From NCBI RefSeq assembly GCF_003334335.1, contig NZ_QOWQ01000048.1: DNA of 30,915 nt; one strand, 5' to 3'. This document shows positions 1-8,938 of the stretch, piece by piece (the first letter of the stretch is position 1; each line of letters starts with the position of its first letter). Under the pieces are notes generated by a model. The model ran no database searches and was not told the DNA's origin. It saw only the letters and a program-made list of their open reading frames with translations. Both the position numbers and the translations under genes were made by a program. The DNA comes from Escherichia coli (GTDB taxonomy: Bacteria; Pseudomonadota; Gammaproteobacteria; Enterobacterales; Enterobacteriaceae).

Positions 1-264
1 ATGAAGTTCCGGCTCGGTGGTTTCGAGGCCATAAAGTCGGCTTACATGGCCCAGGTGCAGTACAGCATGTGGGTGACACGAAAAGATGCCTGGTACTTTG
101 CCAACTATGACCCGCGTATGAAGCGTGAAGGACTGCATTATGTCGTGGTTGAGCGGGATGAAAAGTACATGGCGAGTTTTGACGAGATGGTGCCGGTGTT
201 CATCGAAAAAATGGACGAGGCACTGGCTGAAATTGGTTTTGTATTTGGGGAGCAATGGCGATGA
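1..264 (+). CDS. exo: Lambda-type exonuclease (Red-alpha), C-terminal fragment, 5'-partial at the window edge
   Basis: The 87-aa translation ending ...[11 protein letters not shown] matches the lambda Exo C-terminus as I recall it; the ATG at position 1 is internal to the real gene. Confidence 0.85.
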
Positions 265-443
265 CGCATCCTCACGATAATATCCGGGTAGGCGCAATCA
301 CTTTCGTCTACTCCGTTACAAAGCGAGGCTGGGTATTTCCCGGCCTTTCTGTTATCCGAAATCCACTGAAAGCACAGCGGCTGGCTGAGGAGATAAATAA
401 TAAACGAGGGGCTGTATGCACAAAGCATCTCCTGTTGAGTTAA
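255..443 (+). CDS. Small lambda orf60a-like protein
   Basis: A 62-aa ORF overlapping the exo 3' end, in the position and orientation of lambda orf60a. The true start may be the second ATG at 261. Confidence 0.65.
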
Positions 444-607
444 GAACGAGTATCGAGATGGCACATAGCCTTGCTCAAATTGGAATCAGGTTTGTGCCAA
501 TACCAGTAGAAACAGACGAAGAATTTCATACGTTAGCCACATCCCTTTCACAAAAACTGGAAATGATGGTGGCGAAAGCAGAAGCAGATGAGAGAGACCA
601 GGTATGA
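416..607 (+). CDS. Small lambda orf63-like protein
   Basis: A 63-aa ORF overlapping the previous ORF by 28 nt, the same arrangement as orf60a/orf63 in lambda. Confidence 0.7.
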   Translation: MHKASPVELRTSIEMAHSLAQIGIRFVPIPVETDEEFHTLATSLSQKLEMMVAKAEADERDQV

Positions 608-687
608 CAACCACTGAATGCATTTTTCTGGCAGCGGGCTTCATATTCTGTGTGCTTATGCTTGCCGACATGGGGCTTGTTCAGTGA
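604..687 (+). CDS. Possible 27-aa hydrophobic micropeptide (MTTTECIFLAAGFIFCVLMLADMGLVQ)
   Basis: Its ATG overlaps the orf63-like TGA stop in an ATGA arrangement (604..607). The sequence is a continuous hydrophobic stretch long enough for one transmembrane helix. Confidence 0.35.
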   Translation: MTTTECIFLAAGFIFCVLMLADMGLVQ

Positions 688-899
688 CACCTCAGCAGGA
701 AAACGCCCTTCGCAGCATTGCCCGTCAGGCTAATTCTGAAATCAAAAAAGCCAGACAGCAGTTTCCGGATAAAAACGTCGATGACATTTGCCGTAGCGTA
801 CTGAAGAAGCACCGCGAAACGGTAACGCTGATGGGATTCACACCGACTCACTTAAGTCTGGCAATCGGTATGTTAAACGGCGTCTTTAAGGAACGGTGA
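618..899 (+). CDS. Hypothetical protein in the orf61 region; start uncertain
   Basis: A 93-aa ORF in a third frame, followed by a hairpin plus T-run. It overlaps the micropeptide ORF, so which of the two is expressed is unresolved. Confidence 0.4.
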   Translation: MHFSGSGLHILCAYACRHGACSVTPQQENALRSIARQANSEIKKARQQFPDKNVDDICRSVLKKHRETVTLMGFTPTHLSLAIGMLNGVFKER

Positions 900-921
900 A
901 CATGAAAAGCAAAATCATCAG

Positions 922-945
922 GGAGCTACAGGCTCCTTTTTTATT
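922..945 (+). terminator. Intrinsic-terminator-like hairpin plus T-tract
   Basis: GGAGC-tacag-GCTCC followed by TTTTTTATT. Confidence 0.45.
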
Positions 946-997
946 ATTCGCATTCACCCTCAAGCGTATTAACCAACAATTCAGGGATTAATGGAAG

Positions 998-1219
998 ATG
1001 GCAGACCTCATTGATTCAGCATCAGAAATTGAAGAATTACAGCGCAACACAGCAATAAAAATGCGCCGCCTGAACCACCAGGCTATATCTGCCACTCATT
1101 GTTGTGAGTGTGGCGATCCGATAGATGAACGAAGACGCCTGGCCGTTCAGGGTTGTCGGACTTGTGCAAGTTGCCAGGAGGATCTGGAACTTATCAGTAA
1201 ACAGAGAGGTTCGAAGTGA
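998..1219 (+). CDS. TraR/DksA-family C4 zinc-finger protein (lambda Orf73-like)
   Basis: A 73-aa protein with CxxC...(17)...CxxC (CCECG...CRTCASC), typical of the TraR/DksA zinc finger. Its stop overlaps the next ORF's GTG (GTGA). Confidence 0.8.
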   Translation: MADLIDSASEIEELQRNTAIKMRRLNHQAISATHCCECGDPIDERRRLAVQGCRTCASCQEDLELISKQRGSK

Positions 1220-1467
1220 GCGTAATTCACTCTCAGGCACTGCGTGAAGCGGCAGAGCAGGCAATGCATGACAACTGGGGATTTGACGCGGACCTTTTCC
1301 ATGAGCTGGTAACACCATCGATTGTGCTGACACTGCTGGATGAACGGGAAAGAAACCAGCAGTACATCAAACGCCGCGACCAGGAGAACGAGGATATTGC
1401 GCTAACGGTGAGGAAACTGCGTGTTGAGCTGGAGACAGCAAAAATCAAAACTCAACGAGCAGCGTGA
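1216..1467 (+). CDS. Ea22-like protein, N-terminal part, ended by an in-frame TGA at 1465
   Basis: GTG start overlapping the upstream stop; the 83-aa product resembles the conserved Ea22 N-terminus (recalled, not searched). The same frame stays open after the TGA for 53 more codons, to a TAG at 1627..1629. Confidence 0.6.
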   Translation: MSVIHSQALREAAEQAMHDNWGFDADLFHELVTPSIVLTLLDERERNQQYIKRRDQENEDIALTVRKLRVELETAKIKTQRAA

Positions 1468-1765
1468 GTAGAAGGTGTTATCTCGGATGGAAGTAAGCGT
1501 ATTGCTGAACTGGAGGCCTGGGTTGAATACACAAGAGCTGCATACGTAAGAGCAAAAGACAAGGGAGATTTGATCAGAGTTATTACCCGACAACCAACGG
1601 GATTTTACGCTTACGTACCATGTAATTAGGAATCCTTGAAGTGGCAGCCTAACTGCGGATACACTGAAATGGCGATTTGGTAACATGTTTCGCACAAGGC
1701 TGTTACTACGCTTAAAGATAATCAGCCATGATTAAACGCTTTGTAAAAAGTAAAAGGAAATTACA

Positions 1766-2380
1766 ATGAAAAAATCAATACTAATTTTAGGGCTTACGTT
1801 AATTGTCTCATCTCAAATACCATCGGCAATGGCAAAAAATGAATCAAGACTTTGGGTTGTTGTTGATCGAACGGAAAGACATACCTGCCCTTCAAGTAAA
1901 TGTGGAGTGGCTGGGAAACTATTTTTCAGGGAAGGCGTAGATTTTCTAGAAAAAAAAGGTGAATGGGTTCGTATAACTGAGCCATATTCAGCCTCATGTG
2001 TGGGAGGGGAAAGCGAATATATTAAAGAAGGTAATAAATCCTGCACAAGAAAAAACGGAATCGTCAATGGCAAGTTTTCAGAATGGGTTAAACTTAGTGA
2101 TCTTAGCAGTGAAAGGCCATCAGATCCTGCTGAAAATGCGAGCGGAGATGATACTTTAATCAAAGGATCTGATGACTACCGTATATACAAAAAAGAGTTT
2201 TCTTCGGCAGCTAGGAAGTTAATAAACGAAGGGGTCTGCACGGAAAGCGACTTTAAGGAAATCGGAGGGTGGATGGCATCAAGCAATAAGGGGAAAAACA
2301 TCTATTTCACATATTGCGGAGGAATGACGTTGTCGAACAGAATATACCTAGACGTTAAAAGTGGAAAGACTTTTAGATAA
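1766..2380 (+). CDS. Hypothetical secreted (periplasmic) protein, 204 aa, AT-rich accessory gene
   Basis: SD AAGGAAA 8 nt upstream of the ATG. N-terminal signal peptide MKKSILILGLTLIVSSQIPSAMA with an AMA-K signal peptidase I site and no lipobox. The mature part has 7 Cys. Codon usage is visibly AT-rich compared with the flanking genes. Confidence 0.75.
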   Translation: MKKSILILGLTLIVSSQIPSAMAKNESRLWVVVDRTERHTCPSSKCGVAGKLFFREGVDFLEKKGEWVRITEPYSASCVGGESEYIKEGNKSCTRKNGIVNGKFSEWVKLSDLSSERPSDPAENASGDDTLIKGSDDYRIYKKEFSSAARKLINEGVCTESDFKEIGGWMASSNKGKNIYFTYCGGMTLSNRIYLDVKSGKTFR

Positions 2381-2451
2381 TATGATATTACCAATGACAG
2401 TATTAATTTAATGCCTCCATAGAATTATCTCTAGGAAGTATGTATAAGAAA

Positions 2452-2488
2452 AGCCCGCACAATGAGCTGCTGCGGGCTTTGTGTTATT
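2452..2488 (+). terminator. Intrinsic terminator downstream of the secreted-protein gene
   Basis: AGCCCGCA-(11-nt loop)-TGCGGGCT followed by TTGTGTTATT. Confidence 0.55.
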
Positions 2489-2673
2489 CGCCATATTTTA
2501 TGAAGCAAATACGACACTATAGATAATTAAGCGTTGCTGGTTGTCGATTCCTCACTCACTCCTGTTGATGGCTCTCTTCTTGTATGTGCCATTGAAGGGT
2601 AATATCGAGTAAAAAGATACCGGAAGTATCCGCGCCGCCATGATTGTCTTTCTCCTAATGCAGGAAAAGCAGA

Positions 2674-3012
2674 ATGGCTAAATCATCAGCAGAGCGCAAA
2701 GTCGATCAGAGAGCCAAGCAAGCATCATCCGGTATGCGTAAGCTGGAGCTTGTACTTGATGCTCAGGAAATTGAAATGCTGGATCGTAACTGAGCCACGC
2801 GCCGCTTCAGGCATGCGCCTTACGAGTTTGGTGAGTACATCGCGTTACTGAGCCGCCAGGATGATGCACGTGTGCGCTGGCGTATAAAATCGATCAGCAG
2901 AAAACGTTGCGGTAAGTGCGGCGAGAGAGTTCCTGTTAATTCATGCCCGTGTAATGGTGACTCACAATGCTGGGTGACCAAAGGCTGGCACGAAACAAAA
3001 TTAATGATATAA
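2674..3012 (+). pseudogene. Cys-rich small-protein ORF interrupted by a single in-frame TGA (2791..2793); possibly an ea8.5-type gene
   Basis: Frame 1 is open from 2644 to 3009 apart from the one TGA. The C-terminal half carries CGKC...CPC...C, a zinc-ribbon-like pattern. SD AGGAAA precedes the ATG at 2674. The ORF track shows no intact ORF of 60 aa or more on either strand here. Confidence 0.45.
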
Positions 3013-3040
3013 ATCTCTGTGACATGTCACGGAGGCGGCA

Positions 3041-3469
3041 ATGAAATTAGACCAGCAATATCTAAAAGATCTACTTATCGCATTCGAAAAAACTCATGGC
3101 CCTGACACGATGCTTAGTGAACTAGAGGATAATGGCTTTAATAGATATGACCAAAATTTTATTTTCCATATGCGATTATTATGCGACTACGAATTAATAG
3201 TCAGGGTTGATGGAAAACCTGGGTTCGGTCATATAATGTCCAACGAGTTAGGGGAAGGTGTTGGATATAGTTGGATCGAAGTACCACTGAGGTTGACAGC
3301 AAGAGGGCATGATTTTATTGCTGACTTGCGTCAAAAGGAGGTCTGGCAAACTATAAAAACAAACTTTAAGGATGAGGGAATTAGTACACTAATAAGTGTT
3401 TCAAAATCACTAGCAAAAGGCTTTGCAAGGAAAAAGATAAAAGATATTACAGGAATAGATATTGAATAA
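3041..3469 (+). CDS. Hypothetical cytoplasmic protein, 142 aa, AT-rich accessory gene
   Basis: Strong SD GGAGG 5 nt upstream. No signal peptide or transmembrane segment. Followed by its own terminator. No catalytic motif that I recognise. Confidence 0.7.
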   Translation: MKLDQQYLKDLLIAFEKTHGPDTMLSELEDNGFNRYDQNFIFHMRLLCDYELIVRVDGKPGFGHIMSNELGEGVGYSWIEVPLRLTARGHDFIADLRQKEVWQTIKTNFKDEGISTLISVSKSLAKGFARKKIKDITGIDIE

Positions 3470-3513
3470 TTCTTAGCATCAGCAACTACTGCCTTTGGTG
3501 GAAATTATATCTG

Positions 3514-3540
3514 AACTCGCTACGGCGAGTTTTGTTTTAT
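3514..3540 (+). terminator. Intrinsic terminator downstream of the 142-aa gene
   Basis: AACTCGC-tacg-GCGAGTT followed by TTGTTTTAT. Confidence 0.6.
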
Positions 3541-3551
3541 GGAGATGATAA

Positions 3552-3719
3552 ATGCACTTCCGAGTCACAGGTGAATGGAATGGAGAACCATTCAACAGAG
3601 TTATCGAAGCAGAGAACATCAATGACTGCTATGACCACTGGATGATATGGGCGCAGATAGCACATGCAGACATAACCAATATTCGAATTGAAGAACTGAA
3701 AGAACACCAAGCCGCCTGA
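3552..3719 (+). CDS. Hypothetical 55-aa protein upstream of xis
   Basis: GGAG 8 nt upstream of the ATG; the ORF ends inside a hairpin plus T-run. Confidence 0.4.
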   Translation: MHFRVTGEWNGEPFNRVIEAENINDCYDHWMIWAQIAHADITNIRIEELKEHQAA

Positions 3720-3732
3720 TGGCGGTTTTTTC
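3709..3732 (+). terminator. Terminator-like hairpin just upstream of xis
   Basis: CCGCC-tgat-GGCGG followed by TTTTTTC. In lambda-type logic this would be read through by antiterminated pL transcripts. Confidence 0.45.
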
Positions 3733-3758
3733 TTGCGTGTAATTGCGGAGACTTTGCG

Positions 3759-3977
3759 ATGTACTTGACACTTCAGGAGTGGAACGCTCGCCAGCGACGC
3801 CCAAGAAGCCTTGAAACAGTTCGTCGATGGGTGCGCGAATGCAGGATATTCCCTCCTCCGGTTAAGGATGGAAGAGAATATCTGTTCCACGAATCAGCGG
3901 TAAAGGTTGACTTAAATCGACCAGTAACAGGTAGCCTTTTGAAGAGGATCAGAAATGGGAAGAAGGCGAAGTCATGA
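3759..3977 (+). CDS. xis: Excisionase
   Basis: The 72-aa product MYLTLQEWNARQRRPRSLETVRRWVRECRIF... matches lambda Xis as I recall it; it overlaps the int start by 23 nt, as in lambda. Confidence 0.95.
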   Translation: MYLTLQEWNARQRRPRSLETVRRWVRECRIFPPPVKDGREYLFHESAVKVDLNRPVTGSLLKRIRNGKKAKS

Positions 3978-5025
3978 GCGCCGGGATTTACCCCCTAACC
4001 TTTATATAAGAAACAATGGATATTACTGCTACAGGGACCCAAGGACGGGTAAAGAGTTTGGATTAGGCCGAGACAGGCGAATCGCAATCACTGAAGCTAT
4101 ACAGGCCAACATTGAGTTATTTTCAGGACACAAACACAAGCCTCTGACAGCGAGAATCAACAGTGATAATTCCGTTACGTTACATTCATGGCTTGATCGC
4201 TACGAAAAAATCCTGGCCAGCAGAGGAATCAAGCAGAAGACACTCATAAATTACATGAGCAAAATTAAAGCAATAAGGAGGGGTCTGCCTGATGCTCCAC
4301 TTGAAGACATCACCACAAAAGAAATTGCGGCAATGCTCAATGGATACATAGACGAGGGAAAGGCGGCATCAGCCAAGTTAATCAGATCAACACTGAGCGA
4401 TGCATTCCGAGAGGCTATGGCTGAAGGCCATATAACAACAAACCCGGTCGCAGCCACTCGCGCTGCAAAATCAGAGGTAAGGAGATCAAGACTTACGGCT
4501 GACGAATACCTGAAAATTTATCAAGCAGCAGAATCATCACCATGTTGGCTTAGACTTGCAATGGAACTGGCTGTTGTTACCGGGCAGCGAGTTGGTGATT
4601 TATGCGAAATGAAGTGGTCTGATATCGTAGATGGATATCTTTATGTCGAGCAAAGCAAAACAGGCGTAAAAATTGCCATCCCAACAACATTGCATGTTGA
4701 TGCTCTCGGGATATCAATGAAGGAAACACTTGATAAATGCAAAAAGATTCTTGGCGGAGAAACCATAATTGCATCTACTCGTCGTGAACCGCTTTCATCC
4801 GGCACAGTATCAAGGTATTTTATGCGCGCACGAAAAGCATCAGGTCTCTCCTTCGAAGGGGATCCGCCAACCTTTCACGAGTTGCGCAGTTTGTCTGCAA
4901 GACTCTATGAGAAGCAGATAAGCGATAAATTTGCTCAACATCTTCTCGGGCATAAGTCGGACACCATGGCATCACAGTATCGTGATGACAGAGGCAGGGA
5001 GTGGGACAAAATTGAAATCAAATAA
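3955..5025 (+). CDS. int: Tyrosine integrase, lambda Int type
   Basis: The 356-aa product MGRRRSHERRDLPPNLYIRNNGYYCYRDPRTGKEF... is essentially lambda Int by recollection; its 3' end faces the att site. Confidence 0.97.
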   Translation: MGRRRSHERRDLPPNLYIRNNGYYCYRDPRTGKEFGLGRDRRIAITEAIQANIELFSGHKHKPLTARINSDNSVTLHSWLDRYEKILASRGIKQKTLINYMSKIKAIRRGLPDAPLEDITTKEIAAMLNGYIDEGKAASAKLIRSTLSDAFREAMAEGHITTNPVAATRAAKSEVRRSRLTADEYLKIYQAAESSPCWLRLAMELAVVTGQRVGDLCEMKWSDIVDGYLYVEQSKTGVKIAIPTTLHVDALGISMKETLDKCKKILGGETIIASTRREPLSSGTVSRYFMRARKASGLSFEGDPPTFHELRSLSARLYEKQISDKFAQHLLGHKSDTMASQYRDDRGREWDKIEIK

Positions 5026-5113
5026 TGATTTTATTTTGACTGATAGTGACCTGTTCGTTGCAACAAATTGATAAGCAATGCTTTTTTATAATGCCAACTT
5101 AGTATAAAAAAGC
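5026..5113. other. attL (B-O-P') junction: P' arm with Int arm-type sites and the 15-bp common core
   Basis: The core TTAGTATAAAAAAGC at 5099..5113 is the reverse complement of the lambda att core GCTTTTTTATACTAA. Arm-type sites ATTTTGACTG and ATAGTGACCT lie at about 5034..5053. Host B-side sequence AGGCTTCA follows the core. Confidence 0.85.
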
Positions 5114-5159
5114 AGGCTTCAACGGATTCATTTTTCTATTTCATAGCCCGGAGCAACCT

Positions 5160-6443
5160 GTGAACACATTTTCAGTTTCCCGTCTGGCGCTGGCATTGGC
5201 TTTTGGCGTGACGCTGACCGCCTGTAGCTCAACCCCGCCCGATCAACGTCCTTCTGATCAAACCGCGCCTGGTACCTCTTCTCGCCCGATTCTGTCGGCA
5301 AAAGAAGCGCAGAATTTCGATGCTCAACACTATTTTGCATCCCTGACACCAGGTGCTGCAGCGTGGAATCCTTCCCCGATTACCCTGCCTGCGCAACCTG
5401 ACTTTGTTGTCGGCCCGGCGGGCACTCAAGGTGTAACGCATACCACGATTCAGGCGGCGGTAGATGCGGCAATTATCAAGCGTACCAACAAGCGCCAGTA
5501 TATTGCCGTGATGCCTGGTGAGTATCAGGGAACGGTATATGTCCCTGCCGCTCCGGGTGGAATTACTCTGTACGGTACAGGTGAAAAACCGATTGATGTG
5601 AAGATTGGGCTTTCCCTTGATGGTGGCATGAGCCCTGCCGACTGGCGTCACGACGTCAACCCGCGCGGCAAATATATGCCAGGTAAACCAGCGTGGTATA
5701 TGTACGATAGCTGCCAGAGCAAACGCAGCGACAGTATCGGTGTTCTCTGCTCTGCGGTCTTCTGGTCACAAAACAATGGCCTGCAACTGCAAAATCTGAC
5801 CATCGAAAACACGCTGGGCGATAGCGTAGATGCAGGTAACCATCCGGCGGTGGCACTGCGTACTGATGGTGACCAGGTACAGATTAACAACGTTAACATT
5901 CTCGGTCGTCAGAACACCTTCTTTGTCACCAACAGCGGTGTGCAGAACCGTCTGGAAACAAATCGTCAGCCGCGTACGCTGGTGACCAACAGCTACATTG
6001 AAGGGGATGTGGATATCGTTTCTGGTCGCGGCGCAGTGGTGTTCGATAACACCGAATTCCGCGTGGTGAACTCACGTACTCAGCAAGAAGCGTATGTGTT
6101 TGCACCGGCTACGCTGTCCAACATTTACTACGGTTTCCTCGCCGTAAACAGCCGTTTCAATGCTTTCGGTGATGGTGTGGCGCAACTGGGCCGCTCGCTG
6201 GATGTTGATGCCAATACCAACGGTCAGGTGGTGATCCGTGATAGCGCCATCAACGAAGGTTTTAACACGGCTAAACCGTGGGCCGATGCGGTGATCTCTA
6301 ATCGTCCGTTTGCGGGTAATACCGGCAGCGTAGATGATAACGACGAAATACAGCGCAATCTGAATGACACTAACTACAACCGCATGTGGGAATACAATAA
6401 CCGCGGCGTGGGTAGTAAAGTGGTTGCAGAGGCGAAGAAGTAA
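5160..6443 (+). CDS. ybhC: Outer-membrane lipoprotein of the pectinesterase-like / acyl-CoA thioesterase family
   Basis: GTG start; lipoprotein signal peptide with lipobox LTAC; the 427-aa product matches E. coli YbhC. Confidence 0.93.
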   Translation: MNTFSVSRLALALAFGVTLTACSSTPPDQRPSDQTAPGTSSRPILSAKEAQNFDAQHYFASLTPGAAAWNPSPITLPAQPDFVVGPAGTQGVTHTTIQAAVDAAIIKRTNKRQYIAVMPGEYQGTVYVPAAPGGITLYGTGEKPIDVKIGLSLDGGMSPADWRHDVNPRGKYMPGKPAWYMYDSCQSKRSDSIGVLCSAVFWSQNNGLQLQNLTIENTLGDSVDAGNHPAVALRTDGDQVQINNVNILGRQNTFFVTNSGVQNRLETNRQPRTLVTNSYIEGDVDIVSGRGAVVFDNTEFRVVNSRTQQEAYVFAPATLSNIYYGFLAVNSRFNAFGDGVAQLGRSLDVDANTNGQVVIRDSAINEGFNTAKPWADAVISNRPFAGNTGSVDDNDEIQRNLNDTNYNRMWEYNNRGVGSKVVAEAKK

Positions 6444-6448
6444 GAGCA

Positions 6449-6660
<212 letters not shown>

Positions 6661-6676
6661 ATTCACATGGCGCTTT

Positions 6677-8938
6677 TTACATCTGACGGTTTTTATTGAA
6701 GTTAATCAAACTACCCGCCTTGATAATCTCGCGCTCTTCAGCAGTCAGACTTTCCATATAGAGCGTAATTTCCGTTACCGGCGCATCTTCATGGATCACA
6801 TAACCTTTAAACGTCGTACCCGGATTATCCAGCGCCGCTTTAATGCCAGGGATGTAAATGTAATCCCCCACTTCAAAGGTTGGTACTTCCGCCATTTGCA
6901 GCGGTAACATCCCCCAGTTGATGACGTTAGAACGATAGCGTTTAGTCGCGTACTCCTCGGCAATATTCGCCAGACCGCCAATCACACGCTGGCAGCTCGC
7001 CGCCTGTTCACGCGCAGAACCATCGCCTGGTTTCACCGCATAGACCATGCTGCCAATTTCAGTTTGCAGCGGATCAATATGCTCCTGACCAGCAATCTGC
7101 TTAATGCGCGCAAACACCTCTGTCAGCTCGCTGACATTCCCCGCCAGACGCTGATTTTCCAGCTCAGCAGTCGCTTTACTTCTGCTAACATAACCGGGAT
7201 CGCGGCGAGACAGGGTAAACTCCGCCAGACCAATCGGATTTGAACGATAAGAAGAGGTTTCACCGGAAGGAATCAGTTCGTCGGTGGTGGTCACTTCGTC
7301 GAGGATCTTCGAGCACACTTTCAGGACGATATTGTCAGTCAGCGCACCCAATTCCGGCCAGTCTTTAATGTTCGGCCCGTAAATCAGCGGTTGCTGAGTT
7401 GCCCCTTTCACAAAGCCCTGATAAACACGGTTTTTATACGGCGTTACATCGAAGGCGTACTCCGGCACGTTGTCCCAGCAATCAAGTTCGCTGGCAGAGG
7501 TTAAATAGCCACCGTTTGCCGCAGTCGCAGCGATAGAACGAGCGTCCATCAACGCCACCGCTGACATCTGCCCATTAGCTGGCTTAGAGCCTTCGCGGTT
7601 CGGGAAGTTACGCGTGGTGTGGCGAATACTCAAACCGTTGTTGATTGGCGTATCGCCCGCGCCAAAGCATGGGCCGCAGAACGCGGTTCTGATGATTGCG
7701 CCTGCGCCAATCAAATCTGCTACCACACCTTTTTTGGCGAGATCCATAAACACCGGCTGTGATGACGGGTAAACTGCCAGCGAGAAGGTGTCATTGCCAC
7801 AGGATTGACCGCGCAGTGCATTCGCCGCCGCGATGACGTTTTCGTAGTTACCGCCAGAACAGCCCGCGATAATCCCCTGCTGCACTTTCAGGCGACCATT
7901 TTCCACTTTATCCAGCAGCGAGAGTTTGGCTTTACCGTGCGCCACGCGTTCGGACTCAATTTCAATCTCACGCAGAATGTCGGTCAGGTTCTGGTTCAGT
8001 GTGTCGATTTCATACACGTTGCTCGGGTGGAACGGCAGCGCAATCATTGGTTTGATGGCGCTTAAATCAACGCTGATGCAGCCATCGTAGTACGCCATCG
8101 GTTGAGGGTTAAGCTGGCAGTAATCCTGGCCGCGACCGTGCAGCGCCAGCCAGTTATGGACTTCTTCATCGGTTTGCCAGACAGAACTTAAACAGGTCGT
8201 TTCAGTGGTCATCACGTCAACGCTGTTACGGAAATCGGTAGAGAGCGCGCTAACGCCCGGTCCAACGAACTCCATGACTTTGTTTTTGACGTAACCGTTT
8301 TTGAACACCGCGCCAATGATAGCCAGCGCCACATCCTGTGGCCCCACATACGGCGCAGGTTTTCCGGTCAGATGCACCGCAACCACGCCCGGATAGTCGA
8401 TATCCCAGGTGTCATTAAGCAGCTGTTTTACCAACTCACCGCCGCCCTCACCGACTGCCATTGTCCCTAATGCACCGTAACGGGTGTGGCTGTCTGACCC
8501 GAGGATCATTTTGCCGCCGCCTGCCATCATCTCACGCATATATTGATGGATGACCGCAATATGCGGAGGCACAAAAATACCGCCATAACGCTGGGCCGCC
8601 GATAAACCAAAAACATGGTCATCACCGTTAATAGTGCCGCCGACGGCGCAGAGTGAGTTATGGCAGTTGGTCAGCACATACGGCAGCGGGAAACGTTCCA
8701 TACCGGACGCTTTAGCGGTCTGTACAATACCAACAAAGGTAATATCGTGAGAGGCTAATGAATCAAACTTAATTTTAAGTTTATCCATATTTCCGGACGT
8801 ATTATGCGAAGAGAGAATAGACCAGGCAATAGTGCCTTTTTTGGCTTCTTCTTTTTTAATTTCGCCGGTGAAATGTTCTTCGGCAATTATTTCGTTATTA
8901 CTGGCGAGAAACACGCCTTTTTCAGATAACTTGATCAT
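6677..8938 (-). CDS. ybhJ: Aconitase-family putative hydratase
   Basis: Matches E. coli YbhJ. Start set at the internal ATG (MIKLSEK...), which has GGAG 8 nt upstream, rather than the ORF-track start at 8962. Confidence 0.9.

Follow-up and report, generated by a model that had tools for sequence, protein, structure and literature searches.

A cargo gene of a lambda-like Escherichia coli prophage encodes a predicted periplasmic protein that combines an SH3b domain with a C-terminal domain without described relatives

The DNA analysed in this study (hereafter the window) is a stretch of 30,915 nucleotides of the Escherichia coli contig NZ_QOWQ01000048.1, which takes in the end of a lambda-like prophage integrated at attB-lambda and adjoining the host gene ybhC. 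Our subject is a single gene of this prophage, located at positions 1766-2380 (+ strand), which an earlier note, prepared from the nucleotide sequence alone, had described as encoding a secreted protein of 204 amino acids (aa). The listing of open reading frames (ORFs) contained this frame as described, starting with ATG and coding for 204 aa followed by a stop codon, and a Shine-Dalgarno sequence (AAGGA, 1754-1758, + strand) could be read 7 nt upstream of the start codon. Comparison of upstream regions revealed that the AAGG core of this sequence is retained in diverged homologues. In a profile search the protein matched PHROG 8310, a family of unknown function, over its full length (E=3.6e-136), with residues 1-204 aligning to positions 1-204 of the 204-position profile. 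Complete E. coli genomes with a 100% identical sequence are numerous, an identical copy being present also in the natural lysogen E. coli ATCC 8739, and the ORF is intact in ~130 genomes. The ratio of nonsynonymous to synonymous substitution rates (dN/dS) was 0.085 in comparison with the copy of E. fergusonii and 0.097 in comparison with the copy of phage Chlobot, which is 98% identical. The low dN/dS, together with the full-length match to PHROG 8310, demonstrates that 1766-2380 is a real gene under purifying selection and not a chance ORF.

The earlier note had recognised no family, a statement that has to be revised: the protein belongs to PHROG 8310 and its N-terminal domain is a bacterial SH3 (SH3b) domain. 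An exhaustive search gathered 517 cluster representatives (50% identity clusters) at E<=0.001, and a word-indexed search returned 82 relatives, with 60-69% identity in Pseudomonas and Aeromonas, all of them annotated as hypothetical. The majority of the relatives belong to environmental and marine bacteria or were recovered from metagenomes. The protein had no match in NCBIfam at E<=1, and the defence models of PADLOC-DB 2.0 returned zero families at the same threshold. Our literature search found no paper describing the protein or PHROG 8310.

The N-terminus (MKKSILILGLTLIVSSQIPSAMA, followed after the cleavage site by KNES) displays the n-h-c layout of signal peptidase I substrates, i.e. a KK n-region, a 10-residue hydrophobic core (ILILGLTLIV) and the segment SSQIPSAMA preceding K, with Pro at position -5 and Ala at positions -3 and -1. 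According to hydropathy analysis, this putative Sec/signal-peptidase-I signal peptide (residues 1-23, 1766-1834, + strand) is the sole hydrophobic segment of the protein. Inspection of the N-terminal sequence revealed no lipobox, the first cysteine being residue 41. The n-h-c layout agrees with the signal peptide and AMA-K cleavage site predicted previously, and the position of this cysteine with the absence of a lipobox. The mature protein, as computed from the sequence, comprises 181 aa (~20.3 kDa, pI 8.7).

The number of cysteines had been given as seven, but the protein contains six (residues 41, 46, 78, 93, 158 and 184). All six are present in 132 of the 140 full-length homologues; seven others are devoid of residues 41, 46, 78 and 93 jointly, one is devoid of 41 and 46 only, and C158 and C184 are invariant. 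The losses are thus only pairwise, and 139 of the 140 proteins have an even cysteine count, which points to the pairs 41-46, 78-93 and 158-184 and to an oxidising compartment. This pairwise conservation backs the earlier proposal of export and periplasmic disulfides, as does the fact that the shared module is preceded in every homologue by a signal peptide, a lipobox or a membrane anchor. From the sequence and its comparison with relatives, we infer that the protein is exported, disulfide-bonded and periplasmic.

An AlphaFold2 model, built on a 36-sequence alignment, reached a predicted local distance difference test (pLDDT) value of 90.2 and a predicted template modelling score (pTM) of 0.72, with disorder confined to the signal peptide (pLDDT <50 at residues 1-7 and 19-22). 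The N-terminal domain (~residues 28-110, 1847-2095, + strand) belongs to the SH3b fold class. Its SH3-like beta-barrel can be superposed on SH3b domains of solved structure, and it includes a Cys-containing insert (~70-100); C41-C46 and C78-C93 would be its disulfides. The Pfam model SH3_3 (PF08239) gave a sub-threshold match for the protein itself (E=0.047, residues 40-72), was significant (E<=0.001) in 10 of 15 long relatives, with a best value of 1.1e-9, and appeared as a precomputed domain in ~12 of the 82 relatives obtained in the word-indexed search. Distant members of the family match the SH3b part of the endolysin amidase family PHROG 1794, as well as the wall-binding proteins EntFM/EntA.

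The SH3b domain is followed by an ordered linker (residues 111-128, 2096-2149, + strand; pLDDT 93-98) with a conserved RPxDP motif and the invariant residue P118. The remainder of the protein forms a C-terminal alpha/beta domain (residues 129-204, 2150-2377, + strand) without described relatives, which comprises a long helix (138-154), a short helix (160-166) and three strands, and carries the motifs SDD, GGW and YFTYCGG as well as the invariant pair C158/C184. Modelled alone, this domain had a pLDDT of 94.6. Pfam matched none of the 87 members searched, and the domain has no sequence relative in the PDB, no solved structural neighbour and no detectable relatives of known function. Matches of the C-terminal domain to designed TIM-barrels were rejected as repeat-summing artefacts.

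In all members of the family the module forms the C-terminal end of the protein and lies outside the cytoplasm. The elements that precede it include (i) a signal peptide, (ii) a lipobox (~17-22 of 121 relatives, according to a loose pattern), (iii) one or more membrane helices, (iv) a zinc-ribbon with a membrane helix, (v) extra secreted domains with a coiled coil, and (vi) ankyrin repeats. The C-terminal domain also occurs alone in phage contigs, as a 102-aa secreted protein (L057, 5917-6225) and as a 109-aa lipoprotein (L061, 3969-4298), in tandem (P0150), and together with one or two SH3b domains. Since it is found alone, in tandem and behind such varied anchors, the C-terminal domain is the constant and presumably the working part of these proteins. 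As the comparison of architectures suggests, the SH3b domain is presumably only one of the alternative anchors that position the C-terminal domain in the envelope. Several long relatives (P0084, P0089, P0115, P0128, P0131, P0133 and P0164) share a second secreted domain within their N-terminal ~100 residues (PKEDCE..LGY...Y.F...G.F....H.FG...CYV, followed by a coiled coil), which is without a Pfam match or described relatives.

SH3b domains serve as wall anchors in endolysins, lysostaphin and NlpC/P60 hydrolases. In contrast to these proteins, the SH3b domain described here is not fused to a hydrolase, has a ~20-residue insert and four extra cysteines, and is found in a Gram-negative periplasmic setting. 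The SH3-and-anchor proteins YgiM/TIGR04211 of Enterobacteria and Vibrio are similar in size (~200 aa) and in having a signal peptide followed by SH3b, and distant members of our family gave sub-threshold TIGR04211 matches. However, the protein analysed here, which has no NCBIfam match, lacks a C-terminal membrane anchor and has a different C-terminal domain. The Vibrio 'SH3 domain-containing' proteins in the AlphaFold database list match the SH3 part only (TM ~0.36).

The gene is carried by a low-GC mosaic accessory block of ~1.16 kb (1516-2673), whose approximate boundaries were derived from the limits of shared DNA and from GC content. It lies between a truncated Ea22-like gene and the xis/int genes of the prophage. 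DNA common to >4000 E. coli genomes (the TraR/DksA gene and the Ea22 N-terminus) stops at ~1515 and resumes at ~2674, and the GC content is 0.37-0.41 within the block versus ~0.45-0.52 in the flanks. Of 5426 complete E. coli genomes, 126-133 (~2.4%) contain the block or the whole stretch, while part of the same 2.6-kb stretch, mainly the conserved left end with TraR/DksA and Ea22, matches in >4000 genomes. At the ~1515 junction the block starts just downstream of the cut end of the Ea22-like gene; the remainder of Ea22 was apparently exchanged for the block through illegitimate recombination.

To the left of the block are the TraR/DksA gene (998-1219) and the Ea22-like gene (1216-1467, flagged as truncated/frameshifted/incomplete in RefSeq), and to the right xis (3759-3977), int (3955-5025) and the host gene ybhC (5160-6443). 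The gene is co-directional with the recT/exo remnant, TraR/DksA, Ea22, xis and int, and therefore lies inside the pL early-left direction, in the 'ea' accessory region. The position had previously been taken as one typical of lysogen-expressed genes; a location in the direction of the pL early-left operon does not correspond to a classic site of this kind.

Several other features were noted around the gene. A 97-aa ORF of the - strand (1402-1695), antisense between Ea22 and the gene, is given as a coding sequence in the annotation of phage Chlobot; it is probably not a gene, since it has no PHROG match. The region 2654-3030 contains a fragment of a umuD-like gene ('DNA repair protein') and a pseudogene with an internal stop; their counterparts in Chlobot are intact and encode a UmuD-like protein and a small regulator. 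Just upstream of xis there is a second low-GC accessory gene (3041-3469, GC ~0.37-0.39), encoding a DUF2513/PHROG 585 protein of unknown function.

Reference strains carry the prophage in defective form. In one of them (NZ_CP029057.1, positions 1-7200 of locus L001) it is DLP12-like and carries essD/rrrD/rzpD, an ompC/nmpC-type porin gene and quuD, with ren and recT present only in part. Insertion sequence (IS) IS1 was found within or directly upstream of the block in two strains, one represented by NZ_CM173849.1 (H2) and the other a derivative of E. coli ATCC 8739 (L067, 1076-1773). In the latter, IS1 separates the gene from the Ea22 remnant and could change expression of the gene. Such decay of the surroundings, including Ea22 and the umuD-like gene, and the presence of IS1 in or beside the block would suit the view of the gene as a hitchhiker, a remnant that at present serves neither phage nor cell. 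This view is contradicted by the dN/dS of ~0.09, and the intact ORF in ~130 genomes and the membership in a broad conserved family with fixed motifs and cysteine pairs also speak against it; we consider it very improbable.

Transcription signals of the gene were sought in the window. An ad hoc position weight matrix scan identified a weak candidate sigma-70 promoter (TTGAAG-18 nt-TACACT, 1636-1665, + strand), whose score of 10.06 is above the 99.9th percentile of window positions. A stricter consensus scan found no + strand promoter for the gene; this candidate was missed because only 8 of its 12 positions match the consensus. The upstream regions of the homologues are not conserved. Downstream of the gene there is a GC-rich, terminator-like hairpin (2450-2480; dG -18.8 kcal/mol, z -2.65), which could act in both directions. 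Its T-tract is weak on the + strand (GTGTTATT) and better on the - strand, on which it was detected by the scan. Of the terminator ascribed to the gene in the earlier note, the stable hairpin was thus found, but not a convincing T-tract on the coding strand. Comparable hairpins are located 3' of the stop codon at most homologue loci. The region 900-4000 of the window contains seven terminator-like hairpins versus 2.2 expected from shuffled sequences, with strong + strand hairpins at 920-938, 3513-3532 and 3709-3728, and this excess fits an antitermination-dependent operon of the pL type.

Analysis of homologue loci revealed very diverse genetic surroundings. In other prophages the gene was found between terminase and the lysis genes, in reverse orientation to structural or tail genes, or after a tail fibre gene; in an Aeromonas prophage it lies between the Q antiterminator and holin genes. 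A homologue adjoins the integrase of a small Pseudomonas island, and another is placed among IS elements. The Pseudomonas monsensis island with the homologue (L003, 1-6000) is itself integrated beside two pyocin S/immunity gene sets, which may be a coincidence or reflect a bacteriocin-related hotspot. In IncA plasmids of Citrobacter, Enterobacter and Klebsiella, the gene (98.5-99% identity) resides in a captured lambdoid prophage fragment. It is also carried by an 88-kb phage-plasmid-like replicon of E. fergusonii, and by a 5.3-kb ColRNAI plasmid, in which it is apparently the main non-backbone gene. No recurring partner gene was found across the contexts examined. Taken together with the variety of the carrying elements, this indicates that the gene behaves as stand-alone (moron-type) cargo. 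The earlier suggestion of a prophage moron is largely borne out by the low-GC block, the patchy presence and the occurrence of homologues at unrelated positions in other phages.

The gene resembles lambdoid morons and conversion genes (Bor, Lom, Cor, Llp) in being an extra gene of deviant composition and patchy presence, with a hairpin at its 3' end and an envelope-targeted product. Lom is a beta-barrel of the outer membrane, to which Bor, Cor and Llp belong as small lipoproteins. Unlike them, the protein described here is predicted to be soluble and periplasmic, and its gene occupies the ea region of the pL operon rather than the late region. No homology to Bor, Lom, Cor or Llp was found.

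Some of the homologue loci bear on the possibility that the protein is an endogenous modulator of the wall, which would be tethered to peptidoglycan, bind a murein enzyme of the cell or of the phage, and in this way tune remodelling, stress tolerance or the timing of lysis in the lytic cycle. Homologues were found after the holin/endolysin/Rz genes (L046), adjoining a gene for a GH19-type endolysin (L055), and near a lysozyme and a holin-like gene (L057, the 102-aa protein mentioned above); the co-orientation of the gene with the pL early operon and the core chromosomal neighbourhood of one homologue are also in line with such a role. However, those homologues that have lysis genes in their vicinity are either encoded by the other strand or separated from these genes, and the gene is also present on plasmids and islands that carry no lysis genes. 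We regard a modulator of this type as possible, although somewhat unlikely.

A role directed at a eukaryotic host was also considered, in which the protein would be a fitness or virulence factor, e.g. a new periplasmic lysozyme inhibitor protecting the lysogen in animals. E. coli isolates carrying the block originate from humans, poultry, cattle and wildlife, and a periplasmic, disulfide-bonded protein with a predicted wall tether would suit this function. Against it, neither the protein nor its 87 C-domain relatives gave a Pfam match to Ivy, MliC/PliC or LprI, and the names 'LprI N-terminal/DUF1311', automatically given to two relatives in the AlphaFold database, could not be reproduced. No lysozyme inhibitor was present among the fold matches, PliI and PliG having no models that could be tested as such. 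The predominance of environmental and marine bacteria and metagenomes among the relatives likewise disagrees with an animal-directed function, which seems decidedly improbable. More generally, among the known exclusion, immunity, defence and lysozyme-inhibitor families that could be tested (through Pfam, NCBIfam, PADLOC and fold matches), none was matched. The roles put forward in the earlier note, namely receptor masking, exclusion or host fitness, may nonetheless apply.

What the protein might do in the envelope is suggested by its two domains. SH3b domains direct hydrolases to the stem peptides of peptidoglycan (PMC4600125), and on this basis we propose that the N-terminal domain may tether the protein to the sacculus. 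After Sec-dependent export and cleavage following Ala23, periplasmic oxidation would provide the protein with three disulfides (41-46, 78-93 and 158-184), and the mature 20-kDa protein would form a rigid two-domain unit. The SH3b domain would dock this unit on peptidoglycan, and the C-terminal 75-aa alpha/beta domain, as the putative working part, would bind and block a periplasmic partner. In this way the protein may shield the envelope of the carrier cell from an incoming agent acting on the cell wall or passing through it. Such an agent might be the tail lysin or ejection machinery of a superinfecting phage, a murein-targeting bacteriocin, or an effector of the type VI secretion system (T6SS). 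The gene travels alone and has been repeatedly captured by phages and plasmids, and for this reason envelope protection is proposed as the most likely benefit. A peptidoglycan-tethered periplasmic blocker protecting the envelope is thus our preferred interpretation, put forward tentatively and at rather less than an even chance.

A parallel is offered by T4 Spackle, an early protein that inhibits the tail lysozyme gp5 from within the periplasm and gives superinfection exclusion (PMC7677548). Like Spackle, the protein analysed here is small, phage-encoded among early genes and provided with a signal peptide, and its proposed site of action is the periplasm; no sequence or fold similarity to Spackle was found. 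Among close known systems, small alpha+beta inhibitor folds (PepSY, cystatin-like and BLIP-like) can also be named for comparison.

Several observations weigh against a protective blocker. That an SH3b subtype bearing cysteines binds peptidoglycan in the periplasm of a Gram-negative cell is an assumption. The gene lies in the pL direction and has only a weak promoter candidate, so that its expression in the lysogen is hypothetical. The gene is present in only 1 of 50,697 deposited phage genomes. Finally, a homologue of the lipoprotein form (L008) resides among core housekeeping genes, a setting compatible not only with protection but also with a general role in the envelope.

A broader version of the blocker proposal extends it to the whole family. 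The C-terminal domain might represent an undescribed, widespread family of blocker or immunity proteins mounted on interchangeable anchors (SH3b, lipid or membrane helix) and carried by phages, plasmids and islands across Proteobacteria, which would neutralise a conserved step in crossing the envelope, such as the one carried out by the peptidoglycan-degrading tail tip of a superinfecting phage or by toxins directed at murein. We hold this to be unlikely; if true, it would constitute a new class of superinfection-exclusion or immunity protein. The protein itself is an envelope-targeted accessory protein of mobile elements, in which a familiar anchor is combined with an undescribed C-terminal domain, and no unusual mechanism has been demonstrated for it.

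Periplasmic proteins encoded by mobile elements form a limited group that has proved rewarding to study: T4 Spackle, P1 Sim, Cor/Llp, and the immunity proteins against colicin M and T6SS effectors have each revealed a form of envelope defence. Should no phenotype emerge, the gene described here would stay an ordinary conserved hypothetical cargo gene. The repeated capture of this large conserved family by phages, plasmids and islands argues for a benefit conferred by the gene alone. Since the working domain has neither a Pfam family nor a solved neighbour, a plating or toxin-sensitivity phenotype could assign a function to the whole family and, at the same time, to a new domain.
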